From NCBI RefSeq assembly GCF_003018235.1, contig NZ_CP027437.1: a stretch of 64,000 bases of DNA; one strand, 5' to 3'. The notes under the pieces are model-generated. The model did no database searches. It saw nothing but the letters and a program-made list of their open reading frames with translations, and was not told the origin of the DNA. This DNA is from Escherichia coli. GTDB taxonomy: Bacteria; Pseudomonadota; Gammaproteobacteria; Enterobacterales; Enterobacteriaceae. Of this stretch, positions 33,204 through 52,325 are shown piece after piece. The position numbers were made by a program, and so were the translations under genes. Within the stretch, counting starts at the first letter, position 1. Every line of letters begins with the position of its first letter.

Positions 33204-35126
33204 ATGACCGTGTATTCAGCGGGAGGTCCGCGCATGCCTGAGCCGGAAGAAGAACAGGCATTCACTGAAGAGGTGAACAGCGCCTTTTCCGGGCTGCCTC
33301 GTTTTGTGTCTGTAAAGCTGGGGCGCAGGATCAGCAGCGCATGGCAGACAAAGGGTTTTGCCGGTGCACGGGAAAAATTTGCGCTGATGGTTCAGAAGGA
33401 TTTGCCGTTCATTACCGGGGTGAATAAACGTTATGCCATTAATCCGGATGAATTACCGGGGTGGCTGTTTGGTGGGCTGGCATCTGATCAGGCATACGGT
33501 GCGGTTCATTCCATGACCTGGCGATTTAATGCCATGGTGGATGGTGACGACGGGGATGCGCATTTACTGGCTCAGGATCTGTCCGTGTTTCTTATTGCTG
33601 AAATGCAGCACCTGAGTGTTCTTCTTGCGGATGAAGATGCGGATGCGGCGGCAGATGCCATTTATGCCATGGTTGCCGGGCTTGTTGAGCATTTCCGGAT
33701 GGAGCCACCGGACTGGAAGCGTTTTATTGGCAGAAAGCTGACACTGGAGCAACTGACTGTTGCCATCAGCCGGATGCTGAGTGTTCGCTGGTGGCAGGGA
33801 AAACTCAGGGCATTCTCCCGTCGCTGGCGTGAACATCTGCTTATAGCTATGGGTGTCGTTCGTCGGCAGTCTTCACCGCACTGCAGTTATGAATGGGTGC
33901 AGAGGTGGCTGGCGGGGCGTAAGCACGGTCGAAGGCTGATGGCGGAAACGGACGTTGAGGATGAAGAAACAGGAGAAAGATTTTCACTTCTCGATTTGGT
34001 TGACAGCAGCATTTCAGATGCGGAGAAACGCCGCGCAGAGCTGATGACCAGGGTTAAGGGGCTGGAAGATTTAGCCCGTTTTGAAGGTGTGGCGCAGGAG
34101 CAGGGGTATATCGGGCTTTTTTTCACGATGACCGCGCCATCAAAATATCATGCCTGGCTGGAGACAGGATATCGCAATCGTCGTTATAACGGCGCAAGCC
34201 CGAAAGACACACAAAATTATTTCTCCGGACTCTGGCGTCAGATCAGTGCAACGCTGAGGCGCAGGGGGATCGGGATTTTTGGATTAAGAAGTGCCGAACC
34301 GCATCATGACGGAACGCCGCACTGGCATGGTGTTCTCTATGTGCATCAGGAGCATGCTGCCGCCTTACAGGACATTCTTGAGTATTACGCCAACCGCGAT
34401 GATGACGCGGGAAAAACGCCCATCCGCAAAGCAGGAAGAAAATCCCACCTGGAAATAAAACCGGTTCTTGATGATCTGGGGAGTGCCTCTGCCTATATCG
34501 CCAAGCATATTGGAATGAATCTTGACGGTTGTGCGCCAGGCGGAATGAATCATGAAACGGGCCATACACTGGTGGTCACTGCCCGCCACGCCTCGGCGTG
34601 GGCGTCATTATGGGGGATCAAGCAGTTTCAGTTTATAGGCAGCACACCGGTAAGTGTATGGCGTGAGCTGCGTCGCTTTAACAATCAGGCTCATGCTGAC
34701 CGGATAAGCCCGGCGCTGGGTGAGTTACACCGTGCAGCCAGTGAGGGTGACTGGAAAACCTATACCAGGCTGCAGGGTGGACCGTTTGTGGCACGAAGAG
34801 ATCTGGTCCTTCGCACATGGTATCAGCGTTCGGAGGAGCCGGATGAGTGTGGGCTACACACCAGTGCGATCAAAGGTGTTTATATGCCGGGGCGTGATAC
34901 GCCACCGGTAGTGACGCGTTCACGTAACTGGAGGATCACCCGGAACGTTACAACAGGCGCTCTCAATGTTAACCGGGGGTCTGCTTTAACGCCCTGGACT
35001 TGTGTCAATAACTGCATTTCGGGCAGAAAACGACCAGATGGTCATCCTCCGGATCCAGGTATAAGGATCCCTGTTCAACTGGAACTGAACTTCGGGGAAG
35101 AGAATAAAGGGAAAAGTGAGCAGTAA
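33204..35126 (+). CDS. Rolling-circle replication initiation endonuclease (HUH family; P2 gpA-like)
   Basis: GGGAGGA SD; HUH-type motif GTPHWHGVLYV; 640 aa in the position of gene A relative to int-C-cox. Confidence 0.75.
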   Translation: MTVYSAGGPRMPEPEEEQAFTEEVNSAFSGLPRFVSVKLGRRISSAWQTKGFAGAREKFALMVQKDLPFITGVNKRYAINPDELPGWLFGGLASDQAYGAVHSMTWRFNAMVDGDDGDAHLLAQDLSVFLIAEMQHLSVLLADEDADAAADAIYAMVAGLVEHFRMEPPDWKRFIGRKLTLEQLTVAISRMLSVRWWQGKLRAFSRRWREHLLIAMGVVRRQSSPHCSYEWVQRWLAGRKHGRRLMAETDVEDEETGERFSLLDLVDSSISDAEKRRAELMTRVKGLEDLARFEGVAQEQGYIGLFFTMTAPSKYHAWLETGYRNRRYNGASPKDTQNYFSGLWRQISATLRRRGIGIFGLRSAEPHHDGTPHWHGVLYVHQEHAAALQDILEYYANRDDDAGKTPIRKAGRKSHLEIKPVLDDLGSASAYIAKHIGMNLDGCAPGGMNHETGHTLVVTARHASAWASLWGIKQFQFIGSTPVSVWRELRRFNNQAHADRISPALGELHRAASEGDWKTYTRLQGGPFVARRDLVLRTWYQRSEEPDECGLHTSAIKGVYMPGRDTPPVVTRSRNWRITRNVTTGALNVNRGSALTPWTCVNNCISGRKRPDGHPPDPGIRIPVQLELNFGEENKGKSEQ

Positions 35127-35533: not shown

Positions 35534-36613
35534 ATGCAGGCGATCCTGACGGTATTCCCGCAGCGTAATGCCGGGATAACACTGATGAAAACAGGTAATC
35601 TGACAGCGCGGTTCAGGGACGGGCAGAGAATAATGATAAGGGATGTTCCGTCTGTGATGGCTGGGATGCCATCAGGAGAAATTCCGTCATCAGGACAGAG
35701 GCTGGCGGAAGAGGAAGGACTGACGGCTTTCTTTGCTGACGGAAGGGTAATAAAGCGTGCTGGTGGCAGTGATGCCATGGCGCGTTGGGTGAGCAGGATT
35801 GCAGGCTGCCAGTGTGAGAATGGTGATCACGTGGAGAACATGACAACAGCGCGGACAATGCAGGGAGAGGCGCTTCGGTTATGCCATGCCTGTGATAATC
35901 ATCATTATATGAAAGGATATCGGGCGCTGGCAGATGTGGCAGCCAGAAATCGTGCAGAATGGCTGATGGATTATATCAGGATGAGTCTGGGGCTGGGGGA
36001 AGATCATCAGGTGACCATTCCTGAGTTGTTTTGCTGGGCAGTGCTGAATGATGTGGCAGATGCTGTTCCGGTTATGATCGTAAGGCGTATCAGACAATTG
36101 CCGGAAGAGGAAAAGCTGAGCGGCACGATGAAAGAAGCAGATATTAATCCCTGGCAGACATCAGCAGGCACAGTGGTGAAGAAACTGGCAGATAATGCGA
36201 AGAGCGTTAATGTGTGCAATGTGCGGGTCAGACATGCAGTACGCCAGGAAGAACACAAAGAAATGGAAAAACCGGTGCTGAAACTTGTTGCAGACAGTGA
36301 TCCGGCTGCGGGCTATATGAGGAAGCCCAGAATGCAGCGGCTGTCTCTGCCGGGTTATACCTCGTGGGTGAAGCGTCAGCGATGCTGTGGATGCGGGAAA
36401 CCTGCAGATGATCCGCATCACATCACCGGGCACGGTTTTGGTGGTGCAGGGATAAAAGCCAGTGATTTGTTTGTGATCCCGCTGTGTCGGCAATGTCATC
36501 AGGAATTACACAATGACAGCAAGGCATGGGAGGAGAAAAACGGCAGTCAGTTGCTGTGGGTGATAAGGACGCTGGACAGGGCAGCGGGCATTGGCGCTTT
36601 AGTTGGGGGGTAA
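35534..36613 (+). CDS. Hypothetical protein with C-terminal HNH-like Cys/His nuclease motif
   Basis: CCGCGKPADDPHHITGHGFGGAGIKASDLFVIPLCRQCHQELHND; translationally coupled to upstream gene. Confidence 0.55.
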   Translation: MQAILTVFPQRNAGITLMKTGNLTARFRDGQRIMIRDVPSVMAGMPSGEIPSSGQRLAEEEGLTAFFADGRVIKRAGGSDAMARWVSRIAGCQCENGDHVENMTTARTMQGEALRLCHACDNHHYMKGYRALADVAARNRAEWLMDYIRMSLGLGEDHQVTIPELFCWAVLNDVADAVPVMIVRRIRQLPEEEKLSGTMKEADINPWQTSAGTVVKKLADNAKSVNVCNVRVRHAVRQEEHKEMEKPVLKLVADSDPAAGYMRKPRMQRLSLPGYTSWVKRQRCCGCGKPADDPHHITGHGFGGAGIKASDLFVIPLCRQCHQELHNDSKAWEEKNGSQLLWVIRTLDRAAGIGALVGG

Positions 36614-36614
36614 C

Positions 36615-37319
36615 ATGACACCGCAACAGATGGTATGGGCGAGAGAGCAGGTTATTTTTGCACTGAATCCACCGGATAAACGTCAGAAGGGGCAACTGGA
36701 GGCATTTGGTGATTTTGCCAGGTCAGACACCAGGCGTTACGGGAGGCAGAGAAACAGGACACTGAACATTGATGGCCGGTGGTATTGTCAGGATGGTGAT
36801 CCGGTACATGCTGCGGCAACAGCCTGTTATGCAATACAACCGGATATGATCACCAGGGAAGCGTTCAGAACGGCACAACTGAGGAGGAGGATTTATTGTC
36901 TGGAGGATTATCATCGGGCCTGGGTGTTATTCAGTTACAGCTTGCAGAAAAAACGAATACACCATCTTCTGGTCAGTGAGTACATCTGGATGAGGATGTT
37001 CGAGCGGTTGCAGGGGAAACGGGTTACGGACAGGATGACAGGAAATCTGATTGAAATAGCGAGGATGGCTGCATGGAATGCTGCAGTGACAGCCGGTGGG
37101 ATTGTTGCAGGTAAGGTTCTGATTGCTCCTTCATGTGCGGCGCAGATTGCAGGTGTAAAACCAAACACATGGAGTCAGCATTACAAGGCTCACTGGTGTT
37201 TTATGCATGAAGTATGCGATGAACTGGATCATGAGGCGCTGGTGACCATTACAGGAATAAAAAATCACCAAAAAAACGGCGAAAAATATAAATTTGCTAA
37301 AGTGAATATTTTAAGGTAG
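36615..37319 (+). CDS. Hypothetical protein (234 aa); a late-gene antiterminator role is possible by position only
   Basis: Last long ORF before a terminator and the late region; no motif recognised with confidence. Confidence 0.4.
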   Translation: MTPQQMVWAREQVIFALNPPDKRQKGQLEAFGDFARSDTRRYGRQRNRTLNIDGRWYCQDGDPVHAAATACYAIQPDMITREAFRTAQLRRRIYCLEDYHRAWVLFSYSLQKKRIHHLLVSEYIWMRMFERLQGKRVTDRMTGNLIEIARMAAWNAAVTAGGIVAGKVLIAPSCAAQIAGVKPNTWSQHYKAHWCFMHEVCDELDHEALVTITGIKNHQKNGEKYKFAKVNILR

Positions 37320-37365
37320 ATTTGAGGCAAATTTGATAGTCTGCCGTATTTGTAAGCAGAGCATA

Positions 37366-37389
37366 AACCCGCATATTGCGGGTTTTTTT
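37366..37389 (+). terminator. Rho-independent terminator
   Basis: ACCCGC-atatt-GCGGGT hairpin followed by TTTTTTT. Confidence 0.55.
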
Positions 37390-37513
37390 ATGCCCGAAAT
37401 TTTCCCTCAGCGCAATAAATACGCTGGTGGTTGTGAGTACCGGTCTTTCAGCTTGCTGGCTTTTTCGACAAGAGTTATTGGTATGCCACGTTAACCGGAC
37501 AGGGGGAAAAGAC

Positions 37514-37862: not shown

Positions 37863-38930
37863 ATGACGCATGTTGTAAAAATATCAGAAAGTGAACTGGT
37901 CAATGCTGACTGCCTGGAATTTATACACACGTTGCCAGATGACAGTATTGACCTGATCGTTACCGATCCACCGTACTTTAAAGTGAAACCCAATGGCTGG
38001 GATAACCAGTGGAAGGGTGATGAAGATTACCTGAAGTGGCTGGATCAGTGTCTTGCGCAGTTCTGGCGGGTGCTGAAACCTGCCGGAAGTCTTTACCTGT
38101 TCTGTGGCCATCGCCTGGCATCTGACATCGAAATCATGATGCGTGAACGCTTTAATGTGCTGAACCATATTATCTGGGCGAAGCCGTCCGGACGCTGGAA
38201 CGGATGCAACAAGGAAAGCCTGAGGGCGTATTTCCCGGCCACAGAGCGCATTCTGTTCGCGGAACACTATCTGGAGCCGTATCGCCCGAAAGATGATGGT
38301 TATGAGGCGAAGGGCAGGGCACTGAAACAGCATGTGATGGCACCGCTGATTTCTTACTTTCGTGATGCGCGTGCCGCCCTTGGGATAACGGCAAAACAGA
38401 TTGCTGATGTCACAGGAAAGAAAAACATGGTGTCGCACTGGTTCAGTGCCAGTCAGTGGCAGCTGCCGAACGAAAGCGATTATCTGAAATTACAGGCGCT
38501 GTTTGCCCGGGTGGCAGAAGAGAAGCATCAGCGCGGAGAACTGGAAAAGCCACACCACCAGCTGGTGGTAACGTATACCTCACTGAACCGGCAGTATGCG
38601 GAGTTGCTGAGTGAATACAAAAATCTGCGCCGGTATTTTGGCGTGACGGCGCGGGTCCCGTACACCGATGTGTGGACGCACAAGCCGGTCCAGTTTTACC
38701 CGGGTAAACACCCCTGTGAAAAACCGGCGGAGATGCTGCGGCAGATAATTTGTGCGAGCAGCCGTCCTGGTGACATGGTGGCGGATTTCTTTATGGGGTC
38801 GGGCTCAACCATAAAAGCCGCTATGGCGCTGGGGCGTCGTGCAATTGGTGTTGAACTGGAAGAGGAACGTTTTGCGCAGACCGTGAAAGAGATTAGTCAT
38901 ATCCTGACAGGCTCAATTGATGACGGATAA
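37863..38930 (+). CDS. DNA methyltransferase, beta-class N6-adenine/N4-cytosine
   Basis: Motif IV DPPY (IVTDPPYF) precedes motif I FMGSGST; 355 aa. Confidence 0.85.
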   Translation: MTHVVKISESELVNADCLEFIHTLPDDSIDLIVTDPPYFKVKPNGWDNQWKGDEDYLKWLDQCLAQFWRVLKPAGSLYLFCGHRLASDIEIMMRERFNVLNHIIWAKPSGRWNGCNKESLRAYFPATERILFAEHYLEPYRPKDDGYEAKGRALKQHVMAPLISYFRDARAALGITAKQIADVTGKKNMVSHWFSASQWQLPNESDYLKLQALFARVAEEKHQRGELEKPHHQLVVTYTSLNRQYAELLSEYKNLRRYFGVTARVPYTDVWTHKPVQFYPGKHPCEKPAEMLRQIICASSRPGDMVADFFMGSGSTIKAAMALGRRAIGVELEEERFAQTVKEISHILTGSIDDG

Positions 38931-39457: not shown

Positions 39458-39534
39458 GCGCCGTTAGCTCAGCTGGACAGAGCAATTGCCTTCTAAGCAA
39501 TCGGTCACTGGTTCGAATCCAGTATGGCGCACCA
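39458..39534 (+). tRNA. tRNA-Arg (anticodon UCU)
   Basis: Manual cloverleaf: acceptor GCGCCGT/ATGGCGC, D-arm GCTC..GAGC, anticodon loop CTTCTAA, T-arm ACTGG-TTCGAAT-CCAGT, CCA end. Confidence 0.85.
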
Positions 39535-39535
39535 T

Positions 39536-39610
39536 GCGGTCATCGTATAATGGCTATTACCTCGGCCTTCCAGGCTGATGATGCGGGTTCGATTCCAGCT
39601 GGCCGCTCCA
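39536..39610 (+). tRNA. tRNA-Gly (anticodon UCC)
   Basis: Manual cloverleaf: acceptor GCGGTCA/TGGCCGC, anticodon loop CTTCCAG, T-loop TTCGATT, CCA end; close to glyT tRNA as I recall it. Confidence 0.8.
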
Positions 39611-39768: not shown

Positions 39769-40321
39769 TATTTTTAGTATTTAGCCAGAGTGGCCCAAAC
39801 AGAAAATAAAGTTACTGTGAAACAGGGGGGCCTAATAAAAATAATCACCACTAAATTCGGGGCTTTAAAAATGCTAAGAACATCACATTTCATTATGCCG
39901 GGTACTGGAGAATAACATGATGTTTTGTTAAAAATGATTTTGCATGGTGAATCCCCCTGTGCGGCGGGGCATAATGACAGATGTTTGGTTGCGTATTGTA
40001 TAGGCAAGTTGCGGATTCTGTCTGGTCATTGCAGAATTCACCGGGAGGCACCCGGCACCATGCAGATAATTGTTTTGTGGATGATAATACCAGCCCCTCT
40101 CCGGAGGGGCTTTCTTATGGGCGAAAAAAAGCCCGGGGAGCCGGGCAATAGCATGAGATATACGTTTTTATAGACGTACAGATTTTAATCAGAATTTATG
40201 GGGCTGCGCAACTGCGTGGCCTTTTTTGTTTTGTGGGCTAAGGTTTTCCCCTTTGATTCGCCATGTGGCTGAACCTGTAGCCCGCCACTGTTCAGACGCA
40301 ATCCCGGCAAGGGGAGGAATA

Positions 40322-42349
40322 ATGGCATTTAAACACTACGATCTGGTCTCTGCCAGCAGCGGTGATGAACTGCAAAAGAAACTGACAGAAAAAATAAATG
40401 AAGGGTGGCAGCCATACGGTTCGCCGCTTGTTTCGTATGACGATAACGGGATGAAAATTATTCAGGCCATTGCAGCAGAGGGTGATGTCAGGATCCCGGT
40501 TGAAACGCCTGATGATGGTGGTGATTCACCGGTCACAATGACCTCCGGTGCACCTGATTATTATTATGTTGTTGTGCTTGCCGGACAGTCCAACGGCATG
40601 GCCTACGGTGAGGGGCTTCCGTTACCGGACTCTTATGACCGCCCGGACCCGCGCATTAAACAGCTGGCACGCCGCAGTACAGTGACGCCGGGTGGGGACG
40701 CCTGTGCATACAATGATGTGATTCCGGCTGACCATTGTCTGCATGATGTACAGGATATGAGCGGTGTTAATCATCCGAAAGCGGACCTGAATAAGGGGCA
40801 GTATGGCTGTGTCAGTCAGGGGCTGCATATTGCCAAAAAACTGCTGTCGTATATCCCGCAGAATGCAGGGATACTTCTGGTGCCCTGCTGCCGTGGTGGT
40901 TCTGCATTCACCACCGGGGCTGACGGCACATTCAGTGAGGTCACCGGCGCATCCGCTGACGCTGCACGCTGGGGTGCCGGTAAACCCCTGTATCAGGACA
41001 TGGTCAGCCGGACAAAAGCGGCGCTGGCCAAGAACCCGAAAAACAGGCTGCTGGCGGTGGTATGGATGCAGGGCGAGGCAGACCTTGCGTCAGGCAGTCA
41101 GCAGCATAACGGGTTATTCACGGCCATGGTTCAGCAGTTCCGGACTGACCTGTCCTCACTTGCTGCGCAGTGCGTGAGTGGCAATGCTGCCACGGTGCCG
41201 TGGATTTGTGGTGATACCACGTATTACTGGAAGGCCACTTATGGCACACAGTATGAAGCCATTTATGGAGCCTATAAGAATCTGTCCGCACAGAATATTT
41301 TCTTTGTACCGTTCCTGACAGATGAAAACGGCGCAAACACGCCAACGAACCAGCCAGCGGAAGACCCGGATATTGTGGCTGTGGGGTATTACGGTGCGGC
41401 ATCACGAACACAGGCGAACTGGACGACAGCGCAACGTGACAGCCATTTCAGCACCTGGGCGCGTCGCGGCATCATTTCTGACCGCCTTGCGTCAGCTATT
41501 CTGGTGCACGCGGGACGTACGTCAGGTTTCATTACCGGTGAAGTTTCTTCTCCGGACACTGCATCCGGTGACGGTGGTTCGTCCACTGATGCGGGTACGG
41601 ATGCGGGGACCGGCACTTCCGGAACAGGAAGTGATGACGCTACCGGAACGACACCAGCCACCGCTGCCATTATTCTGAGTGCAGACGGAGGGGATGTTTC
41701 GGCACAGGGCTGGACGGTGGAAGGCACCACGGTGACCACCACGGCAAACACGGTGACTTCATCGGGTGAGGCGCTGGCGCAGAATGTGCTGAGTGTTCCG
41801 AAACAGAGCGGGGCAGCATGGAAGCTTGTTCATACCACCACAGATGAGCCAGCGGAACTGCTGAACAATGGCGGTGAGTTCCTGTGTCGTTTCCGTATCA
41901 CGGATACTGCCATTGCTGAGGGGCGTTATGCCTTTGGTCTTTACTGGCTTCCGGACGCACAGAAGATACCAGCCGGTGCGACATTCAATAAAACAGGAAG
42001 CGGGATGTCCCCGTCCATGCTCAACTTCTATGTCCAGACGGATGGCAGCAACATAAACCTGTTATCACACTGCAGTACGAAGAGTGCAGGGAATCTGAAG
42101 ATTGGCTCATTCGGTGCATTTAACAATGAATGGCATACCTTCCGTCTTCGCTACCATGGTGGCAATACGGCAAGAGCAACGGTGACGCTGGACAGTCAGG
42201 TGGTGGGAGATATAACGCTGTTATGTGCGCCGTCAGCGGCCAGTGCCGGTGACACTCTGTCGATGATAAGTATCACATCGGGTGATACATACAGTATTGA
42301 AGTGGAAAGCCTGAGTGTGACGGTGAACGGGGCTGCGGCAGCGGCGTGA
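40322..42349 (+). CDS. Prophage-type sialate O-acetylesterase-like protein (nanS-p-like)
   Basis: GGGGAGG SD; N-terminal MAFKHYDLV... domain then VVLAGQSNGMAYGEG esterase-like segment; located between tRNAs and holin as in Stx-type lambdoid prophages (recollection). Confidence 0.55.
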   Translation: MAFKHYDLVSASSGDELQKKLTEKINEGWQPYGSPLVSYDDNGMKIIQAIAAEGDVRIPVETPDDGGDSPVTMTSGAPDYYYVVVLAGQSNGMAYGEGLPLPDSYDRPDPRIKQLARRSTVTPGGDACAYNDVIPADHCLHDVQDMSGVNHPKADLNKGQYGCVSQGLHIAKKLLSYIPQNAGILLVPCCRGGSAFTTGADGTFSEVTGASADAARWGAGKPLYQDMVSRTKAALAKNPKNRLLAVVWMQGEADLASGSQQHNGLFTAMVQQFRTDLSSLAAQCVSGNAATVPWICGDTTYYWKATYGTQYEAIYGAYKNLSAQNIFFVPFLTDENGANTPTNQPAEDPDIVAVGYYGAASRTQANWTTAQRDSHFSTWARRGIISDRLASAILVHAGRTSGFITGEVSSPDTASGDGGSSTDAGTDAGTGTSGTGSDDATGTTPATAAIILSADGGDVSAQGWTVEGTTVTTTANTVTSSGEALAQNVLSVPKQSGAAWKLVHTTTDEPAELLNNGGEFLCRFRITDTAIAEGRYAFGLYWLPDAQKIPAGATFNKTGSGMSPSMLNFYVQTDGSNINLLSHCSTKSAGNLKIGSFGAFNNEWHTFRLRYHGGNTARATVTLDSQVVGDITLLCAPSAASAGDTLSMISITSGDTYSIEVESLSVTVNGAAAAA

Positions 42350-42689
42350 GGATAAAAAAAGCTGCCGTGGAAAGTGTCCTGAACCGGCAGCAAGGTCAAA
42401 TGATGGATATACCAATAAGGTTTAATAGGCGCAGATATTTCTAACCGGAAGGCACTTAACGGTCAATAATGGAGGTTGGTAATGACATTTATACAACTGA
42501 TACTGCTATATTTCTGCACGGTGGTCTGTGCGTTATATCTGGTGAGCGGTGGCTATAAAGCCATCAGAAATTATGTCCGCCGAAAAATTGATGATGCAGC
42601 GGCTGAGAAGCTCAGCAGAACAACACAGGCTGCCTCATCCCCGAACGAACCAACCCTTCCACAGTAACGTCTCTCAGCGGGAAAATACC

Positions 42690-43025
42690 ATGACAGAACT
42701 GAACAAACTGGTCACTGCAGATGCAGTGAAGGCCGCACTGCGCTCTGAAGAAGTGCGGGGAAAACTGAAGGAAACCATCCGCAAAACGTTTGAGGCACAG
42801 ATTGATGCGGATGTGGAAGCGGTGCTGGATGAGCTTATCGGGCCTGCGGAAGCTCAGCCGGGAGCACCGGCCGGAGAGGATGCGCAGGCGGATGACACGT
42901 CAGCGGAAAACGGTGCGGCACAACCGGAACCTGAATCAGGAACCGAAGCTCAACCGGACGCTGCTTCCGGAACAGGAACGCAACCGGAGGGTACCCCGGA
43001 GCCGGAACCGGCGACGTTGCTGTAA
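42690..43025 (+). CDS. Hypothetical acidic protein
   Basis: [32 protein letters not shown]...; Ala/Glu/Pro-rich tail. Confidence 0.4.
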
Positions 43026-43038
43026 CACCTCATACTCA

Positions 43039-43066
43039 GGCCACCAGCATACAGCGGTGGCCTTTT
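43039..43066 (+). terminator. Rho-independent terminator upstream of lysis genes
   Basis: GGCCACC-N10-GGTGGCC followed by TTTT. Confidence 0.5.
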
Positions 43067-43102
43067 GTTATCGTGCGCTTCCGGAGAACGGGAGACGGGG
43101 AT

Positions 43103-43318
43103 ATGTACCAGATGGAAAAAATCACAACAGGGGTGTCATACACCACGTCAGCGGCGGGAACGGGATACTGGTTACTGCAGCTGCTGGACAGGGTCTCCCC
43201 GTCCCAGTGGGCGGCGATAGGCGTGCTGGGGAGTCTGCTGTTTGGTCTGCTGACGTACCTGACGAACCTGTATTTTAAAATCAGAGAGGACCGTCGTAAG
43301 GCGGCGCGGGGAGAATAA
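43103..43318 (+). CDS. S: Holin, phage-21 S-type (pinholin-like), dual-start motif
   Basis: [71 protein letters not shown]; two TM segments; Met1 and Met4 starts. Confidence 0.85.
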
Positions 43319-43321
43319 ATA

Positions 43322-43953
43322 ATGAACCATGAAGAAATGAATCAGCGCTTCAGTCGCCTGGAAAATGAAATTGCCGGACTGAATAAAAAACTGTCGGCGC
43401 TGGTGACTTCTGAAGATGAAAAAAAAAACGCCGCGATGAACAGGAGGCGGCGTTTTATGATTATTGCATCAAAGTTGCCCGCAGGACCTTTGCGAATTTT
43501 TTGCAGGAAAAGCTATCACCGACCACATCGTCAGAAAAGTACTCCATTACGGTTGAAAGTGCCGGAGAGGAAGGCAATAAACGTTATTTTATTGCGTCTG
43601 CACCGGATAAAGACGAGGAACCCCGTCGGCCTTTCAGGGTTTCCTATGAAGAGGGGGAGTTCGTCGTTTATGAGAACGGAAAACCTGTCCGGGCATCGCA
43701 TCATCACTGCCTGAAAATTATTGATCTCGCTATTGGATGCCTGAAAGACGAAAACACCAGGGTTATGAAACGCATTGGCCGTTGCATGGGGTATCTGCAG
43801 GTGGCGGCAGAGATTGAAGCACTTGACAGTGGTGCTGACAGGGATACAGCGGTGCGGGAGTTCCTTCTTCGTGATTTCAATACCACGCCCTTTAAAAAAG
43901 TGCCTTATGACTGGATCCAGCCGGGCCTGACTTATCTCAAAGGGCGTATATGA
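43322..43953 (+). CDS. Hypothetical protein interrupted by a frameshift at an A10 tract (43419-43428)
   Basis: Frame 2 (43322-) and frame 1 (-43953) both look coding and would fuse into one ~210-aa protein with one extra A; starts 4 nt after the holin stop. Confidence 0.4.
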
Positions 43954-43995
43954 GTTGGCATGTTATCTGTGGCCGATAAATCCTGATAAATATCC

Positions 43996-44529
43996 ATGAA
44001 CGCAAAAATCAGATACGGCCTGTCGGCTGCCGTTCTGGCGCTGATTGCCGCAGGGGCTTCTGCGCCAGAAATCCTTGACCAGTTTCTGAATGAAAAAGAA
44101 GGTAATCACACCACGGCATACCGTGATGGTGCGGGTATCTGGACCATCTGCCGTGGTGCCATTCTGGTGGACGGTAAGCCTGTTGTTCCCGGCATGAAGT
44201 TGTCGAGGGAAAAATGCGACCAGGTTAACGCCATCGAACGTGACAGGGCGCTGGCATGGGTGGAGAAAAACATCAAAGTGCCGCTGACCGAACCGCAGAA
44301 AGCGGGGATTGCGTCATTCTGCCCGTACAACATCGGTCCTTCGAAATGCTTCACCTCAACGTTTTACCGGAGACTGAACGCCGGAGACCGTAAGGGGGCA
44401 TGTGCTGAAATCCGTCGGTGGATATATGACGGTGGCAGGGACTGCCGTATCCGCTCAAACAACTGCTACGGTCAGGTATCCCGGCGTGACCAGGAGAGTG
44501 CGCTGGCGTGCTGGGGTATCGACAGATAA
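43996..44529 (+). CDS. R: SAR endolysin (T4-lysozyme-like muramidase)
   Basis: Gly/Ala-rich N-terminal SAR segment GLSAAVLALIAAGASA; catalytic E-x8-D-x5-T (EGNHTTAYRDGAGIWT). Confidence 0.9.
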   Translation: MNAKIRYGLSAAVLALIAAGASAPEILDQFLNEKEGNHTTAYRDGAGIWTICRGAILVDGKPVVPGMKLSREKCDQVNAIERDRALAWVEKNIKVPLTEPQKAGIASFCPYNIGPSKCFTSTFYRRLNAGDRKGACAEIRRWIYDGGRDCRIRSNNCYGQVSRRDQESALACWGIDR

Positions 44530-44864
44530 GCAGAATATTTTGCTGAAAAATGAGATTTTCCCACGCGTCCGGAAAACACAAAATCCTTCATAAAGGTATT
44601 TCAGTAGTGAATAAAAGTAAAAACCCCGATTGCGCTAACAGTCGGGGTTTTGTGTTTCTGACCTTGAATAAGGCAAGGGAGAAATTATCAGGTAGGGAGG
44701 TGCTTTCCCTGTGAGGAAGTATAAAAGATTCTTTCTGAGGTTGTCCATTATGAAAGGCATTGAAGTGGAGACGCCAGCCAGTCTGGATTTAACAAGAGCA
44801 GCAGCCTTTGCCATTCGTATTGTGGCAATTGCCATACTGGTCTGGGCAATCCGCTGGTGGTGAT

Positions 44865-45332
44865 ATGAACCGTGTTCTGTATGTGTTGATTATTGTCCTG
44901 CTGGTGGCCTGCGGTGCGCTGTGGCTGGCAACAGACCATTACCGCGATAATGCCATCACTTACAAAGCGCAGCGCGATAAAAAAGTCAGAGAACTGAAGC
45001 TGGCTGACGCCACCATTACTGACATGCAGCAGCGCCAGCGTGATGTTGCTGCACTCGATGCAAAATACACAAAGGAGTTAGCCGATGCGAGAGCTGAAAA
45101 TGAAACTCTGCGCGCTGATGTTGCTGCTGGTCGTAAGCGCCTGCGTGTCAACGCCACCTGTGTGTCCGCCACAGACAAAGCCACCGGCACCGCCCGCGTG
45201 GGTAATGCTGCCCGCCCCAGACTGGCAGACGCCGCTCAACGGTATTATTTCACCCTCAGAGAGCGGCTGATGACGATGCAGAAGCAACTGGAAGGGGCAC
45301 AGGAATATATCAGGACGCAATGCGTGAAATAG
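44865..45332 (+). CDS. Rz: i-spanin Rz
   Basis: N-terminal TM then coiled coil; close to lambda Rz as I recall ([16 protein letters not shown]..). Confidence 0.85.
45085..45270 (+). CDS. Rz1: o-spanin Rz1 lipoprotein, embedded in Rz in another frame
   Basis: AAGGAG SD; lipobox LLLVVSAC; Pro-rich; ends ...[10 protein letters not shown] like lambda Rz1. Confidence 0.85.
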
Positions 45333-45970: not shown

Positions 45971-46447
45971 ATGGACGGCGAGCTGAAAAATATGAAGTTC
46001 AATATTAATCAACTGGCATTCCTTTCAGGCCTGCACCGGCAGACTGTTGCCGCCAGAATGGCGGATGTTCCTCTTGCGCCAGGCAGTAATGAAAAGAAAA
46101 AACTTTATCTCCTGACGGATTTGATTAGTTCGTTACTGGAAAAACCACCCTCTTCCGAAGATGAGGAGATGGATCCACACGATCGCAAGGCATGGTATCA
46201 GTCCGAGCGCGAGCGCCTTAAATTTCAGCATGAAACTGTTCAGCTTGTGCCCGTCAGTGATGTCAGGCGGTCGTTTTCCGTCGTGGTGAAAGCCATTGTG
46301 CAGATACTGGAAACCTGGCCTGACAGGCTGGAAAGGGACAGGGGGTGGACTGCATCACAACTGAACGAAGTGCAGATCGTTGTTGATGAGATCCGTGACA
46401 CGCTGGAAAAGGCAGTGATTGCCTGCTGTGATGAGGCCGATATGTGA
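45971..46447 (+). CDS. Terminase small subunit (Nu1-like, N-terminal wHTH)
   Basis: GGAGGAGG SD; MKFNINQLAFLSGLHRQTVAARM resembles the lambda Nu1 N-terminus; precedes large terminase. Confidence 0.7.
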   Translation: MDGELKNMKFNINQLAFLSGLHRQTVAARMADVPLAPGSNEKKKLYLLTDLISSLLEKPPSSEDEEMDPHDRKAWYQSERERLKFQHETVQLVPVSDVRRSFSVVVKAIVQILETWPDRLERDRGWTASQLNEVQIVVDEIRDTLEKAVIACCDEADM

Positions 46448-48567
46448 ATCAGGTGAACGAGAGCCACAGCCGCGCATCAGATATCTGGCGCGAAGTGGCC
46501 TCACTGTTTCGCCCACCAGGCCGGTTACCTGTGGCGGAAGCCATCAGGCGTTACATGCGGGTACCACGGGGAGCCAATACTTCCGGTCCGTGGGAGTCAT
46601 CGCTGACGCCCTACATGATTGACCCCATTAATACATTATCAGCCCGTGAATATGACGCGGTGGTGTTTGTGGGACCGGCGCGAACCGGGAAAACCGAAGG
46701 GCTGATTGATGGCTGGATTGTGTATGGCATTATCTGCGATCCGGCGGATATGCTGGTGGTGCAGATGACCGAAACAAAGGCGCGGGAGCATTCCAGAACG
46801 CGTCTTTCCAGGACATTTCGTCACAGTCCGGAGGTCAGTAAACGCCTCAGCCCTTCCCGTAATGACAACAACGTCCACGATAAAATGTTTCTTGACGGCT
46901 CCTTTCTGAAAATTGGCTGGCCGTCGATCACCGTATTTTCCTCCTCAGATTACCGCCGGGTGGCGCTGACGGACTATGACCGTTTTCCTGAGAACGTCGA
47001 CGGTGAAGGGGATGCCTTCACGCTGGCATCAAAGCGTACCACCACCTTTATGTCCTCAGGGATGACCCTGGTCGAAAGTTCACCCGGGCGGGATATCACC
47101 GACACCAAATGGCGATGTGGTGGTGCACATGAGGCTCCGCCAACAACGGGGATCCTGTCGCTGTATAACCGGGGAGACCGCCGCCGGTGGTACTGGCCGT
47201 GTCCGCACTGCGGGGAATATTTTCAGCCGGTGATGGATAACATGACCGGTTACCGTAATAACCCAGATTTTGTGGCTGCGGGTCAGGCTGCCCGTCTGAT
47301 GTGTCCGCACTGTCGCGGGCTGATTGCTCCGGAACAGAAACGCGAACTGAATAACAGGGGGATCTGGCTGCGGGAAGGTGAACGGGCGGCGGCGGACGGC
47401 AGCATCACCGGAACGCCACGAAATTCCAGGATTGCGTCATTCTGGATGGAGGGTCCGGCTGCGGCGTTTCAGACCTGGGAACAACTGATTTTTAAGCTGC
47501 TGGCGGCAGAAGAAGAGTATGAGCGAACCGGCAGTGAAGAGACCCTGAAAGCGGTGGTGAATACCGATATCGGACGGCCTTATCTGCCCCGTTCAGCCAC
47601 GGAACAGCGTAAAAGTGAACTGCTTGAACAGCGTGCTGAGCCGGTTCCCCGGCGGTGTGTGCCGGATGGGGTGCGCTTCATTGAGGCAACGGTTGACGTA
47701 CAGGGCGGTAAAAACCGCCGGTTTGTGGTGCAGATCACCGGATATGGAGAGCAGGGGGAACGCTGGATTGTTGATCGCTACAACATCCGGCAATCACTGC
47801 GATGCAGTCCCGGTGGTGAGAGCCTGCCGGTTGATCCGGCGGCCTATCCGGAAGACTGGGAACTGTTGCTGACAGATGTGTTTCACAAAACCTGGCCGCT
47901 GGCGTCTGATCCGGATGTGCATATGCGGCTCATGGCGATGGCCGTGGATACGGGCGGTGAAGCCGGGGTGACGGATAACGCCTATCGTTTCTGGCGGCAG
48001 TGCCGCCGGGAAGGGCTGGGTAACCGGGTGTTTCTGTTCAAGGGGGATGGTCTTCGTCGCGACAGACTGATTAACCGGACATTCCCGGATAACACCGGCA
48101 GAAGCGCCCGCCGGGCCAGGGCGAGCGGTGACGTTGCCCTGTGGCTGGTACAGACCGATGCGTTTAAGGACCGGGTGAATAATGCGCTGTGGCGTGACAC
48201 ACCGGGGCCGAACTATATCCACTTTCCTGACTGGCTGGGACGGTGGTTTTTCGATGAGCTGACCTATGAGGAGCGCGGCAGTGACGGAAAATGGCGAAAA
48301 CCGGGCAGAGGCGCTAACGAAGCGTTTGACCTGCTGGTCTATGCGGATGCGCTTGCCGTTCTGCATGGCTACGAGAAGATACGCTGGCCGTCTGCACCGG
48401 ACTGGGCGCAGCGGGAAACATGGCTTGTCGGTCCGGAGGAGCGTTCAGGGCTGACAACATCACGGGCGCTGCCGGAAAGGAAAGAAAAACGCCGTCGCAG
48501 GCAGGAAAAACTGCGCGCAGAGCGGGCAGAGGATAATCCGTGGATAACATCAGGAGGCTGGTTGTGA
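46444..48567 (+). CDS. Terminase large subunit (lambda gpA family)
   Basis: 707 aa; Walker A-like GPARTGKT; CPHCGEYF zinc motif as in lambda A. Confidence 0.9.
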   Translation: MNQVNESHSRASDIWREVASLFRPPGRLPVAEAIRRYMRVPRGANTSGPWESSLTPYMIDPINTLSAREYDAVVFVGPARTGKTEGLIDGWIVYGIICDPADMLVVQMTETKAREHSRTRLSRTFRHSPEVSKRLSPSRNDNNVHDKMFLDGSFLKIGWPSITVFSSSDYRRVALTDYDRFPENVDGEGDAFTLASKRTTTFMSSGMTLVESSPGRDITDTKWRCGGAHEAPPTTGILSLYNRGDRRRWYWPCPHCGEYFQPVMDNMTGYRNNPDFVAAGQAARLMCPHCRGLIAPEQKRELNNRGIWLREGERAAADGSITGTPRNSRIASFWMEGPAAAFQTWEQLIFKLLAAEEEYERTGSEETLKAVVNTDIGRPYLPRSATEQRKSELLEQRAEPVPRRCVPDGVRFIEATVDVQGGKNRRFVVQITGYGEQGERWIVDRYNIRQSLRCSPGGESLPVDPAAYPEDWELLLTDVFHKTWPLASDPDVHMRLMAMAVDTGGEAGVTDNAYRFWRQCRREGLGNRVFLFKGDGLRRDRLINRTFPDNTGRSARRARASGDVALWLVQTDAFKDRVNNALWRDTPGPNYIHFPDWLGRWFFDELTYEERGSDGKWRKPGRGANEAFDLLVYADALAVLHGYEKIRWPSAPDWAQRETWLVGPEERSGLTTSRALPERKEKRRRRQEKLRAERAEDNPWITSGGWL

Positions 48568-48776
48568 GTATTGATGATGTCAGGAACATGATACAGCGGT
48601 ACCGCGATGCGGAAATGGCGGTACTGGAAGGAAAATCCGTCACATTTAACGGGCAGCAACTGACGCTGGAAAGTCTGTCCCAGATCCGCGCCGGTCGGCA
48701 GGAGTGGGAGCGAAGACTTACGGCGATGGAGAACCGCAGACGGGGGAGTCCGGGGTTTAAACTGGTGAGGTTCTGA
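48564..48776 (+). CDS. W: Head-tail joining protein gpW-like
   Basis: ~70 aa ending ...RRRGSPGF, similar to the lambda W C-terminus; GTG start overlapping terminase stop. Confidence 0.7.
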   Translation: MSIDDVRNMIQRYRDAEMAVLEGKSVTFNGQQLTLESLSQIRAGRQEWERRLTAMENRRRGSPGFKLVRF

Positions 48777-50278
48777 TGGCGATTAGTGATGATGTGATTG
48801 GTTTTTTCTCGCCCGGCTGGAAAGCGGCGCGATTACGCTCAAGGGCGTTAATTATGGCCTATGAGGCCGTGAAACCCACCCGCACGCACAAAGCCCGGCG
48901 GGAAAACCGTTCTGCCGATCAGCTCAGTAAATACGGTGCGGTTTCCCTGCGCGAGCAGGCCCGCTTTCTGGATATCAATCATGACCTGGTGATAGGCGTG
49001 TTTGACAAGCTGGAGGAGCGGGTGATTGGCGCCAGGGGGATCACCGTTGAACCTCATCCGGTGCTGAAAAACGGGAAGATTGCGGCGGAGCTGGCAGCGG
49101 ATATCCGGCGGCTGTGGGCGGAATGGTCTGTCAGTCCGGATGTGACCGGACAGTACACCCGTCCCATGCTTGAACGTCTGCTGCTGCGCACCTGGCTGCG
49201 GGACGGGGAAGTGTTTGCGCAGATGGTCAGTGGTGCGGCAGGCGGTCTTAAGCGGTCTGCCGGTGTGCCTTTCTGGCTTGAGGCGATGGAGCCGGATTTT
49301 GTGCCCATGCGCAGTGATGAATCTGCCGGACTGAATCAGGGCGTTTTTCTGGATGAGTGGGGCAGGCCGAAAAAATATCTGGTTTACAAAAATTATCCGG
49401 TTTCCGGGATACAGAGTGATACCAAAGAGATCGCCGCAGACAATATGGTGCACCTGAAGTTCACCCGTCGCCTGCACCAGACGCGTGGCACATCCATGCT
49501 GTCAGGGGTGCTGATGCGGATCAGTGCGCTTAAGGAATATGAAGACGCCGAGCTGACTTCGGCACGTGTTGCGGCGGCGCTGGGGCTGTATATCCGTAAA
49601 GGGGACGGACAGGACTATGAAGATCCGGGGGTGAAAGACAACGAACGTGAAGTGCATATCACCCCGGGCATTATCTATGACGATTTGCGCAAGGGTGAGG
49701 ATATCGGCATGGTCAAATCAGACCGTCCGAATCCCAATCTTGAGAATTTTCGTAACGGCCAGCTGCGTGCGGTGGCGGCAGGCAGTCGTCTGAGCTTTTC
49801 CAGTGCGGCGCGCAACTACAACGGCACCTACAGTGCCCAGCGGCAGGAGCTGGTGGAGTCCACCGATGGTTATTTTATCCTTCAGGACTGCTTTATTGGC
49901 GCGGTAACCCGTCCGGTATACCGGGCATGGCTGAATATGGCGGTTGCGGCAGGTCTGCTGAAAATCCCGACTGGCCTGGATATGAAGACGTTATATAACG
50001 CGACGTATTCCGGTCCGGTGATGCCGTGGATTGACCCGGTTAAGGAAGCTGAAGCCTGGCGGATACAGATCAGGGGTGGTGCCGCGACGGAATCCGACTG
50101 GATCCGCGCAAGCGGGCGCAACCCGGATGAGGTCAAACGTCGCCGTAAGGCTGAAACTGATGAAAACCGCAGGCTGGGGCTGGTCTTTGATACTGACCCC
50201 GTCAACGACAAAGGAGGCAACAGTGCCGGAACTGAACAACAGCGTCAGCAGGCCACCGACAGCCAGCATGAAGAATAA
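48776..50278 (+). CDS. B: Portal protein (lambda B family)
   Basis: 500 aa; position between W and the protease/capsid gene. Confidence 0.85.
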   Translation: MAISDDVIGFFSPGWKAARLRSRALIMAYEAVKPTRTHKARRENRSADQLSKYGAVSLREQARFLDINHDLVIGVFDKLEERVIGARGITVEPHPVLKNGKIAAELAADIRRLWAEWSVSPDVTGQYTRPMLERLLLRTWLRDGEVFAQMVSGAAGGLKRSAGVPFWLEAMEPDFVPMRSDESAGLNQGVFLDEWGRPKKYLVYKNYPVSGIQSDTKEIAADNMVHLKFTRRLHQTRGTSMLSGVLMRISALKEYEDAELTSARVAAALGLYIRKGDGQDYEDPGVKDNEREVHITPGIIYDDLRKGEDIGMVKSDRPNPNLENFRNGQLRAVAAGSRLSFSSAARNYNGTYSAQRQELVESTDGYFILQDCFIGAVTRPVYRAWLNMAVAAGLLKIPTGLDMKTLYNATYSGPVMPWIDPVKEAEAWRIQIRGGAATESDWIRASGRNPDEVKRRRKAETDENRRLGLVFDTDPVNDKGGNSAGTEQQRQQATDSQHEE

Positions 50279-52238
50279 ATCCTGGTTCAGGATGCAGGCG
50301 GGTGGTCAGGGTGAGGCGGATATTTATATTTATGACGAGATTGGTTTCTGGGGGGTTACGGCGAAGCAGTTTATCAGTGATCTGAATGCGCTTGGCGACA
50401 TCACCCACATTAATCTCCATATCAATTCACCGGGTGGCGAGGTCTTTGAAGGCATCGCCATTTTTAATACCCTCAGAAATCACGGTGCAGGCATTACCGT
50501 GTATGTGGACGGGGTTGCCGCGTCGATGGCATCCCTGATTGCGATGGCCGGTGACACGGTCATTATGCCGGAAAATGCCTTCATGATGATCCATAAGCCC
50601 TGGGGGATCAGCGGTGGTGACGCGGAGAAAATGCGCACTTATGCCGATCGCCTCGACAAACTTGAGTCGGTTATGGTGCCGGTATATGCGCAGAAAACCG
50701 GGAAAACCACCGATGAAATTGCTGCCATGCTGGCGGATGAGACCTGGATGTCCGGTGCGGAATGTCTGGCACACGGATTTGCAGACCAGGTGACGCCAGC
50801 CGTTAAGGCAATGGCATGTATTCAGTCAAAACGTACAGAGGAATTTAAAAAGATGCCGGAATCCATCAGAAATATGATCACACAACCGTCTGACCGTACC
50901 CCGCGTGAGGCGACCACCACACAGGCAGTCACAGAACCCGCCCCGGCACCGGCAGCGCCAGATGAGGAGACCATCCGGGCCAGTGTACTGGCGGAGCAGA
51001 AGGCCCGTATGTCAGGCATTAACGATCTGTTTGCCATGTTTGGTGGTCGTTATCAGGCACTTCATGCGCAGTGTGTGGCCGATCCCGGCTGCTCGCTGGA
51101 GATGGCCCGAGAGCGTCTGCTGAATGAAATGGGTAAGGAGTCCTCGCCGACTAACAAAACCACACCGGCACATATTTATGCCGGAAACGGTAATTTTGTG
51201 GGTGACGGGATCCGTCAGGCGCTGATGGCCCGCGCCGGATTTGAGACTACGGAGAAGGATAATGCCTATAACGGGATGACCCTGCGTGAATGCGCCCGCA
51301 TGTCACTGACGGAGCGGGGGATCGGGGTGGCCAGTTACAACCCCATGCAGATGGTGGGGCTGGCGCTGACGCACAGCACCTCGGATTTTGGCAATATCCT
51401 GCTGGATGTGTCGAATAAGGGACTGATTCAGGGCTGGGAGGAATCAGAGGAAACCTTCCAGAAATGGACCCGCAAAGGTCGCCTGTCTGACTTCAAAACG
51501 GCATACCGTGTGGGGATGGGGGGCTTTGGTTCACTGCGTCAGGTGCGCGAAGGGGCAGAGTACAAGTACATCACCACCTCAGACCGCAGGGAAACCATCG
51601 CGCTGGCGACCTACGGGGAAATTTTCTCCATCACCCGTCAGGCCATTATCAATGATGACCTGAATATGCTGGTGGATGTCCCGATGAAGATGGGGCGTGC
51701 CGCGAAGGCAACGATTGGTGACCTGGTGTATGACGTGCTGACAAAAAATCCGAAACTGTCAGACGGCAAGGCGCTGTTCCATGCCGATCACCAGAATATT
51801 GCCACCGGCGGGATCTCCGTTTCCGGTCTGGATGCGGCACGTCAGATGATGCGTCTGCAGAAGGAGGGGAATCGTGCACTGAATATCCGTCCGGCCTTCA
51901 TGCTGGTACCGGTGGCGCTGGAGACGGTGGCAAACCAGACCATCAAATCGGCCAGTGTGAAAGGGGCGGATGCGAATGCCGGTGTCATTAACCCGATTCA
52001 GAACTTTGCCGAAGTGATTGCGGAAGCGCGTCTTGATGCGGCAGATCCGAAAACCTGGTATCTGGCGGCGGCACAGGGGACCGATACGATAGAAGTGGCC
52101 TGGCTGGATGGTGTGGACACGCCGTATATTGATCAGCAGGAAGGCTTCACCACTGACGGTATCGCCACAAAAATCCGTATTGATGCCGGTGTGGCACCGC
52201 TTGACTGGCGCGGACTGGTACGATCATCTGCTGCCTGA
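50268..52238 (+). CDS. Prohead protease (ClpP/S14-like) fused to major capsid protein
   Basis: N-terminal INSPGGEVFEGIAIFNTLR...MASLIAMAGD ClpP-like; ~400-aa C-terminal capsid domain; start at internal ATG 50268 overlapping portal stop. Confidence 0.8.
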   Translation: MKNKSWFRMQAGGQGEADIYIYDEIGFWGVTAKQFISDLNALGDITHINLHINSPGGEVFEGIAIFNTLRNHGAGITVYVDGVAASMASLIAMAGDTVIMPENAFMMIHKPWGISGGDAEKMRTYADRLDKLESVMVPVYAQKTGKTTDEIAAMLADETWMSGAECLAHGFADQVTPAVKAMACIQSKRTEEFKKMPESIRNMITQPSDRTPREATTTQAVTEPAPAPAAPDEETIRASVLAEQKARMSGINDLFAMFGGRYQALHAQCVADPGCSLEMARERLLNEMGKESSPTNKTTPAHIYAGNGNFVGDGIRQALMARAGFETTEKDNAYNGMTLRECARMSLTERGIGVASYNPMQMVGLALTHSTSDFGNILLDVSNKGLIQGWEESEETFQKWTRKGRLSDFKTAYRVGMGGFGSLRQVREGAEYKYITTSDRRETIALATYGEIFSITRQAIINDDLNMLVDVPMKMGRAAKATIGDLVYDVLTKNPKLSDGKALFHADHQNIATGGISVSGLDAARQMMRLQKEGNRALNIRPAFMLVPVALETVANQTIKSASVKGADANAGVINPIQNFAEVIAEARLDAADPKTWYLAAAQGTDTIEVAWLDGVDTPYIDQQEGFTTDGIATKIRIDAGVAPLDWRGLVRSSAA

Positions 52239-52325
52239 TAACCGGCCCGACACAATCACTGCCCGTAAGGGCTTTTTTTATGCCTGAAAACAGCCCCGCC
52301 GGGGGCTGTCCGGAGATACAGCATT

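Follow-up and report, generated by a model that had tools for sequence, protein, structure and literature searches.

A NanS-p-type sialate O-acetylesterase gene in a non-Stx Escherichia coli prophage and the association of its N-terminal module with phage head type

What is encoded by the large open reading frame (ORF) that precedes the lysis genes of a lambdoid prophage in Escherichia coli contig NZ_CP027437.1 (assembly GCF_003018235.1), and how might its small N-terminal domain be related to the phage that carries it? We analysed a 64,000-nucleotide stretch of this contig, hereafter the window, in which the ORF runs on the plus strand from an ATG at 40322 to a stop codon at 42347–42349 and specifies 675 amino acids (aa). 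Its predicted product is a NanS-p-type prophage sialate O-acetylesterase, an ordinary member of a known family. Among relatives of this protein, the N-terminal 54 residues alone vary with the type of head genes that the prophage carries, and it is in this matching alone that the analysis adds to the statements of the cited papers.

Identity and domains of the 675-residue protein

An earlier note on this DNA had proposed a prophage nanS-p esterase, encoded by a 675-aa ORF with a strong Shine-Dalgarno sequence. The frame, which is nested in a longer TTG-started frame (40226–42349), was confirmed, as was the Shine-Dalgarno motif, GGGGAGG, read from the sequence at 40311–40317 on the plus strand, 4 nt 5′ of the ATG. 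PHROG 143 covers the protein end to end (E=1.9e-278); the PHROG matches carry no functional label, and an NCBIfam search of the protein gave no match. The profile search that the note had named as its check, for SGNH/SASA and DUF1737 domains, detected both with Pfam, DUF1737 (PF08410) at residues 3–53 (E=3.6e-15) and SASA at residues 83–280 (E=3.3e-14), and DUF6645 (PF20350) as well, at residues 514–632 (E=7.8e-21). This architecture recurs in at least 1576 proteins, almost all of them from E. coli, and the 750 complete E. coli genomes that were positive for nanS-p contain ~2,100 places with the gene. NCBI holds the identical 675-aa protein on 13 contigs (EIM3166406.1 and others), where it is named only “DUF1737/DUF6645 domain-containing protein,” with no functional name. 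Taken together, the ORF and its PHROG, Pfam, and NCBI matches mark 40322–42349 (plus strand) as a three-domain sialate O-acetylesterase gene of the nanS-p type, with 49–52% overall identity between its product and the NanS-p proteins of Shiga toxin (Stx) phages.

The central domain (residues 77–399; 40550–41518, plus strand) is a NanS-like esterase of SGNH type II, as judged from its structural match and conserved blocks. A PDB sequence search matched residues 77–394 to NanS/YjhS (3PT5; E=2e-122), with 60.5% identity over 314 residues, and Foldseek with a model of the 675-aa protein returned the same structure (E=1e-29). The active site of NanS consists of Ser19 and His301, with an oxyanion hole formed by Gln18 and a glycine and no catalytic Asp, and its block motifs read GQSNA, RGGSAF, MQGEFD, and R-x-SHFS (PMC9063846, PMC10792757). 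The window protein carries GQSNG at 88–92 (block I, containing Gln89 and Ser90, the latter encoded at 40589–40591), RGGSAF at 191–196 (block II), MQGEAD at 249–254 (block III), and RDSHFS at 372–377 (block V; 41435–41452, with the His375 codon at 41444–41446). In the alignment to 3PT5, Q89, S90, G192/193, and H375 map one-to-one onto the NanS active-site residues, such that Gln18/Ser19/His301 of NanS correspond to Gln89/Ser90/His375, and the SGNH blocks with Q89, S90, G192, and H375 are invariant in 23 aligned homologues. By this alignment, the esterase has a predicted Ser90/His375 dyad and a Gln89/Gly192-193 oxyanion hole. NanS is a single-domain enzyme of ~320 aa that belongs to the chromosomal sialic acid regulon, whereas the window protein is prophage-borne in a late operon and adds DUF1737, two linkers, and a lectin-like C-terminal domain (CTD). 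Acetylesterase activity has been shown for other NanS-p alleles from Stx and non-Stx prophages (PMC8065619). Block V reads RDSHFS in the window and in most sampled non-Stx alleles, with RDMH (locus L034) and RKTHFG (PhiR12_3) as variants; the Stx-phage NanS-p proteins have RSSH or RASH instead, with RPTH as a rare variant in a survey of Stx2a phages.

The CTD (residues 450–675; 41669–42346, plus strand; DUF6645, CTD cluster 0) is a predicted lectin-like jelly roll. Residues 450–669 matched the NanS-p C-terminal domain 6YP6 in a PDB sequence search (E=2.4e-34), and the modelled CTD superposed on 6YP6 in Foldseek with a template modelling (TM) score of 0.89. The next Foldseek matches were the lectin domain of a Vibrio cholerae sialidase (2W68), Akkermansia sialidases, and ganglioside-binding neurotoxin domains, pointing to a more distant relationship with sialic acid-binding lectin domains. 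Three of the four sugar-site aromatics proposed in vb_24B_21, the NanS-p of phage phi24B, are kept (Y536, Y541, and Y570).

In the AlphaFold2 model, which has a mean predicted local distance difference test (pLDDT) score of 65.9 from a shallow alignment and is of moderate confidence, disordered linkers at 54–76 and 399–446 connect an alpha/beta core to a small beta-alpha-beta-beta domain at the N-terminus and to a CTD folded as a beta-sandwich. Foldseek matches with the full-length model were confined to the two large domains, with none for the N-terminal domain. Linker 1 (residues 55–76; 40484–40549, plus strand) and linker 2 (residues 400–449; 41519–41668, plus strand) both have pLDDT values below 50 and are predicted to be disordered. 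Linker 2 is rich in Gly, Thr, Ser, and Asp (T12, G11, S8, A7, and D6 over 50 residues) and carries SSP at 409–411; the Gly/Thr/Ser-rich central linker noticed earlier lies at residues 416–449, within this low-complexity stretch. Its DAGTDAGT run is no detectable repeat array, Tandem Repeats Finder having returned no repeat in the linker DNA. The earlier description of a multidomain secreted enzyme thus stands in its first half, with three domains by Pfam and PDB, and fails in its second: a crude hydropathy test found no signal peptide or hydrophobic segment (the highest Kyte-Doolittle 19-mer score was 0.32 for residues 1–40 and 1.19 for the protein as a whole), and the N-terminus, MAFKHYDLVSASSGDELQKK, is polar.

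N-terminal modules and head types across prophages

The N-terminal DUF1737 domain (residues 1–54; 40322–40483, plus strand; Pfam PF08410) is a candidate capsid adaptor. In phi24B, the NanS-p protein gp84 (vb_24B_21) is an abundant virion protein whose DUF1737 domain, by cryo-electron microscopy, assembles as hexamers in the hexon at the centre of every T=9 facet, with Tyr42 as its anchor; gp84 is cleaved in both linkers after release, and an SSP processing motif in these linkers has been put forward as a proposal only (bioRxiv 10.64898/2026.04.10.717836). The window domain is 54% identical to the Min27/phi24B-type domain. Its AlphaFold2 fold (beta5–11/alpha14–26/beta36–40/beta43–52; pLDDT ~75–80) agrees, at the level of a model, with that of the phi24B decoration protein DCP, which has one helix and three antiparallel strands, and the shared plan continues with a flexible linker followed by outward-facing domains.

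Head modules could be typed at 34 loci, giving 25 unique protein/head combinations. These loci were taken from E. coli genomes and metagenome-derived contigs because isolated phages offered no close references; a phage collection search gave nothing closer than 57% for the N-terminal domain or 35% for the CTD. The anchor loop of DUF1737 defines class A (SYDDNGMKI, as in the window), class B (a short loop, AITPYTLMQ), class C (STAGYGAEF, the phi24B type), class D (SYTDDGAAL), and class E (LLSDMDGIFYQ), and some N-termini are non-DUF1737. At these loci, classes A, D, and E were always found with “W-type” heads (13 loci), class B with lambda-type heads (7 loci) or HK97-like “Y” heads (9 loci), and class C with Sepvirinae heads (2 loci). 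An unrelated 112-aa N-terminus is found in two independent Mu-like prophages, and a remote DUF1737-like N-terminus accompanies one PF09950-capsid head.

Across the 25 combinations, the N-terminal 54 aa shared 84.9% identity when the head types agreed and 48.3% when they differed (p~0.0002 by label permutation), in statistics that ignore shared ancestry and on loci drawn from relatives of the window protein. The esterase (82.2% within and 80.1% between) and the CTD (49.8% and 49.6%) showed no association with head type. In a set of 21 combinations, the within/between values for other genes were 72.4/69.1 for DUF1378, 88.2/86.3 for the holin, 91.7/91.8 for the lysozyme, and 90.7/88.3 for the upstream methylase. 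All eight predictions that had been fixed before look-up came true (P0035, P0066, P0032, P0002, and four blind genome loci), and H3, which has a lambda head and at first appeared to be a counterexample, proved to have a class B protein and so fits. Simple linkage does not explain the pattern, because the stretch from the N-terminal coding region to the head genes contains the CTD and the lysis genes, and these are unassociated with head type. Hitchhiking was likewise rejected, since the intervening CTD, DUF1378, holin, and lysozyme do not follow the head and Q types differ among loci of one head type. Two pairs illustrate the pattern: between the window and L007, the N-termini are 52% identical, the esterases 94%, and the CTDs 99%, and the heads are different, whereas between the window and L006 the N-termini are 100% identical and the CTDs 31%, and the head is the same.

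The window gene reads as a mosaic of an H1-like N-terminus and a P0001-like esterase and CTD. Its upstream 1.4 kb is 99.9% and its DUF1737 domain 100% identical to E. coli O158:H23 (H1, WP_216781411.1), which also has a W head module and a 95% identical esterase but differs in a CTD that is only 78% identical and a linker that is 11 residues shorter. The P0001 cluster, from E. coli Stx prophages, resembles the window gene in its esterase (94%), CTD (99%), and linker, which is the same, and differs in its class B DUF1737 (52% to the window), upstream stx genes, and lambda-type head. The nearest relatives of the window esterase-CTD body lie directly 3′ of Shiga toxin genes (L007 8277–9510; L021 8555–9790), which are of the RIP plus SLT_beta kind in L007 and L008 and Stx2h in L021. 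From 39924 onward, the window DNA is ~93% identical to L007, and the non-Stx window prophage therefore shares its late region with Stx prophages.

NanS-p-like esterases in Mu-like prophages (L019 10662–12794 in E. coli STEC299 and L036 11662–13740 in E. coli CI5) are 92% identical to the window esterase and are situated between a tail-fibre assembly gene and com/mom; L019 also has a gin-like recombinase beside the tail-fibre assembly gene, before the esterase. The 112-aa Mu-type N-terminal module gave no PHROG match. The window DUF1737 domain also matches a Pseudomonas phage protein (H66, vB_Pae_BR326a; hits H124/H125) with 34% identity (E=6e-5), which is called a “head fiber protein” in one record and a “tail fiber protein” in another. 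This match is an independent hint that virion-associated DUF1737 proteins may exist outside E. coli.

Expression, mechanism, and competing explanations

A terminator-like hairpin with a U-tract (40200–40233, with the hairpin at 40200–40223, plus strand; −19.7 kcal/mol, z=−3.5) lies ~100 bp 5′ of the ATG and would insulate the nanS-p gene unless transcription is antiterminated. A second, strong terminator directly follows Q (37365–37392, comprising 37365–37385 and U7, plus strand; −16.1 kcal/mol, z=−3.7) and is a candidate tR′. In a crude consensus scan, no sigma-70-like promoter was found between 40234 and 40321, and promoter-like sites were not enriched (6 found versus 6.5 expected). The scan 3′ of the gene found a hairpin after the stop codon without a U-tract and no terminator belonging to the gene itself. 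From the missing promoter, the terminators upstream, and the position 3′ of Q, we infer that nanS-p is a Q-dependent late gene. Late or induced nanS-p expression has been reported (PMC8065619, PMC10462455), including a rise on prophage induction in studied strains (PMC10462455). Exit through the adjacent lysis cassette would be the simplest route because the protein lacks a signal peptide.

Taken as a whole, these data are best explained, in our view very probably correctly, by a NanS-p-type esterase of three modules on disordered linkers that is made late and is possibly docked to the virion. If it behaves like the NanS and NanS-p enzymes that have been assayed, the central domain would hydrolyse O-acetyl esters on sialic acids (Neu5,9Ac2, both free and in mucin O-glycans), and this deacetylation would open the sialic acids to sialidases and the Nan catabolic pathway; the lectin-like CTD may target the enzyme to sialoglycans. 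Upon induction, nanS-p would, from its sequence context, be transcribed with the late operon, and cell lysis by the adjacent holin/lysozyme/Rz cassette would free the protein. Comparison with phi24B gp84 suggests that DUF1737 may dock the enzyme onto the phage’s own capsid. In that case, an enzyme that binds and modifies mucus would be borne on the virion, and linker cleavage may later shed it. We tentatively propose, as a view somewhat short of an even call, that DUF1737 and its non-homologous replacements are exchangeable, head-specific docking modules that mount one and the same sialate O-acetylesterase-lectin cargo on the capsids of lambdoid siphoviruses, Sepvirinae podoviruses, and Mu-like phages of E. 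coli, with class A as the W-head adaptor. There is moderate support, from the comparison of loci, for DUF1737 acting as a head-matched docking module in the window phage too, and attachment of the window protein to the virion is plausible.

Several observations weigh against this explanation, most of them against its docking part. The phi24B anchor residue Tyr42 is Asn42 in the window protein, and the anchor loop reads SYDDNGMKI where the phi24B type has STAGYGAEF. The SISSP that follows Gly54 in phi24B is absent, linker 1 reading DVRIPVETP at that point (EGDVRIPVETP) and having no SSP. The window head belongs to the ClpP-capsid-fusion siphovirus family and not to the T=9 Sepvirinae heads, and binding in phi24B is confined to the flat hexon in the middle of T=9 facets (bioRxiv 10.64898/2026.04.10.717836). 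The window protein thus falls outside the phi24B-type decoration system as defined by Tyr42 and a T=9 capsid. The match between N-terminal class and head also has one exception and so is not one-to-one, in that class B serves two head types and an identical class B protein (P0110, 647 aa) occurs with lambda-type and HK97-like heads (L013 versus L011/L012). The association is with the whole morphogenesis module, not the capsid protein specifically, and carries the ancestry limit given above. The structural model is of moderate confidence, and the fourth sugar-site aromatic, F611, is replaced by Ser641. Some of these points would suit a soluble enzyme that serves lysogen fitness only, being released at lysis or leaked from the lysogen population and feeding kin deacetylated sialic acid, with a DUF1737 domain that does not bind the virion and has another role, such as oligomerisation or folding. 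This is the classical reading of NanS-p, backed by growth experiments on Neu5,9Ac2 (PMC8065619), and it is favoured by the loss of Tyr42 and SISSP, by a head family unlike that of phi24B, and by a class B domain common to two head types. However, it offers no account of why the N-terminal 54 residues alone track the head when the closer CTD and lysis genes do not, or of why different N-terminal modules are found on the same esterase in Mu-like and PF09950-capsid prophages, and we consider it rather unlikely.

The remaining explanations are less probable still. The earlier note had called the gene a moron, which would make it an autonomous conversion gene with its own promoter and terminator, expressed in the lysogen. 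That label would agree with an accessory slot in which relatives have stx and with the lack of an evident need for an esterase in the phage life cycle, but it was not borne out: there is no promoter-like site between the 40200–40223 terminator and the ATG, the downstream hairpin lacks a U-tract, and nanS-p expression goes up on induction in studied strains (PMC10462455), which together render it improbable. Slightly more improbable is an esterase that acts on O-acetylated O-antigen or capsule (e.g., polysialic acid) and aids phage adsorption or release in the manner of esterase tailspikes. This idea was raised in a review (PMC8065619), which cites the virion-borne acetylesterases of G7C and Vi phages; against it, the nearest relatives that have been characterised are sialate-specific O-acetylesterases that work on mucin glycans, the phi24B orthologue is on the capsid and not the tail, and the nearest structural matches of the CTD outside its family are sialic acid-binding lectin domains. 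Finally, a frameshift in a neighbouring 209-aa gene indicates some prophage decay, and the esterase gene might in principle be an inactive relic. Its chance of being so is close to negligible, with a 675-codon frame that is intact, a strong Shine-Dalgarno sequence, all catalytic blocks conserved, and an identical protein on 13 contigs.

The prophage and its place among known systems

The lambdoid prophage starts at ~23.1 kb beside pheA, has an integrase at 23164–24168, and extends beyond the end of the window; the left flank of the window, with recN, ffh, nadK, and the genes beside them, matches complete E. coli genomes at 99% identity. Around the esterase gene, the order is DUF968, the late antiterminator Q (36603–37319, plus strand; PF06323, E=1.4e-27), a DNA methylase (37863–38930), tRNA-Arg(UCU) (39458–39534) and tRNA-Gly(UCC) (39536–39610), both on the plus strand by ARAGORN, the nanS-p ORF, a lysis cassette, and terminase. 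The whole cassette (42476–45332, plus strand; delineated from Pfam, ORFs, and the H1 annotation) comprises DUF1378 (42476–42667), DUF826 (42696–43025), a P21-type holin (43073–43318), the frameshifted 209-aa gene (43322–43953), a lysozyme (43996–44529), and Rz (44808–45332) with Rz1 embedded at 45085–45270, all on the plus strand. The frameshifted gene appears in the window as overlapping 130-aa and 150-aa ORFs, and the H1 genome annotation likewise has it frameshifted; it is a single ~209-aa gene, of no known function, in relatives (e.g., L006 12903–13532).

Phage Min27 is annotated with the same gene order, except that stxAB separates the tRNAs from the esterase gene, and by comparison with Min27 and H1 the tRNA pair at 39458–39610 stands where Stx phages have the tRNA genes that lie 5′ of stx. 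The earlier note’s view that the gene sits in the nanS-p slot of Stx-type prophages is therefore upheld as exact synteny apart from the absent stx, and this synteny, with the domains, PDB matches, and catalytic residues, supports the nanS-p assignment itself. A tblastn search for stx in the window gave chance-level matches only; the idea that the 710-bp gap 5′ of the ORF retains part of stx was rejected on these grounds. The tRNA cassette also varies as a module, being Arg(UCU) plus Gly(UCC) in the window and H1 and either Ile plus Arg plus Arg (the Stx-phage type) or Ile plus Lys in relatives (L020, L021, and L033–L035).

The W-type head module (45971–52652, plus strand; PHROGs and Pfam) encodes a DUF1441 small terminase, a 707-aa GpA-type large terminase, a portal, a ClpP-protease/major-capsid fusion (ClpP-Phage_capsid_4; ORF 50031–52238), and then Phage_cement_2 (52326–52652). 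By this module, the window prophage is a lambda-like siphovirus, and the same module is present at L001, L006, L009, L010, L017, L018, L022, L024, L025, L030, L033, and L034. A P2-type replication endonuclease (33204–35126; Phage_GPA, E=5.5e-77) is located where lambda has O/P, as it is in L024 and L034. Elsewhere in the window, a 1214-aa AIDA/pertactin-type autotransporter adhesin gene (831–4475) adjoins the tmRNA gene (ssrA, 4756–5118, minus strand); this autotransporter region at the ssrA site is probably a separate island.

Compared with Stx-phage NanS-p proteins (933W z1466/L0105, phi24B vb_24B_21, and Min27 pMIN27_43), the window protein shares the three-domain architecture, the SGNH blocks, and the position of its gene, which follows Q and the tRNAs and precedes DUF1378-DUF826-holin-lysozyme. 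By domain, identity to Min27 is 54% for DUF1737, 70% for the esterase, and 34% for the CTD, and the linkers are unrelated. In contrast to these phages, the window has no upstream stx, Asn42, no SISSP, and a siphovirus W-type head in place of the T=9 podovirus head. The phi24B DCP belongs with other hexon-centre decoration proteins that each present a functional domain, the Bas63 decorator and T4 Hoc being named as comparators in the preprint (bioRxiv 10.64898/2026.04.10.717836); the window protein is a candidate relative in which the anchor residue is not conserved. Influenza C HEF and betacoronavirus HE, which have the SGNH fold (PMC9063846), combine a sialate-9-O-acetylesterase with a lectin domain on the particle surface. 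The likeness is an analogy only, as these proteins of eukaryotic enveloped viruses have a different domain order and no detectable sequence relationship to the window protein beyond the SGNH superfamily.

In sum, a protein listed by its DUF1737 and DUF6645 domains can be named as a NanS-p sialate O-acetylesterase of a non-Stx E. coli prophage, a routine gain in annotation. Its allele combination, found in a non-Stx prophage, pairs a class A DUF1737 domain with a CTD class distant from the one of known structure and is uncharacterised, and this CTD class, only ~34% identical to the sole solved example, has a putative glycan specificity. The esterase-lectin body appears to be exchanged freely among prophages, while the N-terminal module continues to correspond to the set of head genes. 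If docking is true, NanS-p enzymes would be virion-borne across several phage morphotypes, and the study of their role in gut mucus colonisation and in phage spread, that of Stx phages included, would change. Beyond being a lysogen nutrition factor, NanS-p would in that case engage mucus as an enzyme displayed on the virion, a phage counterpart of viral haemagglutinin-esterases.

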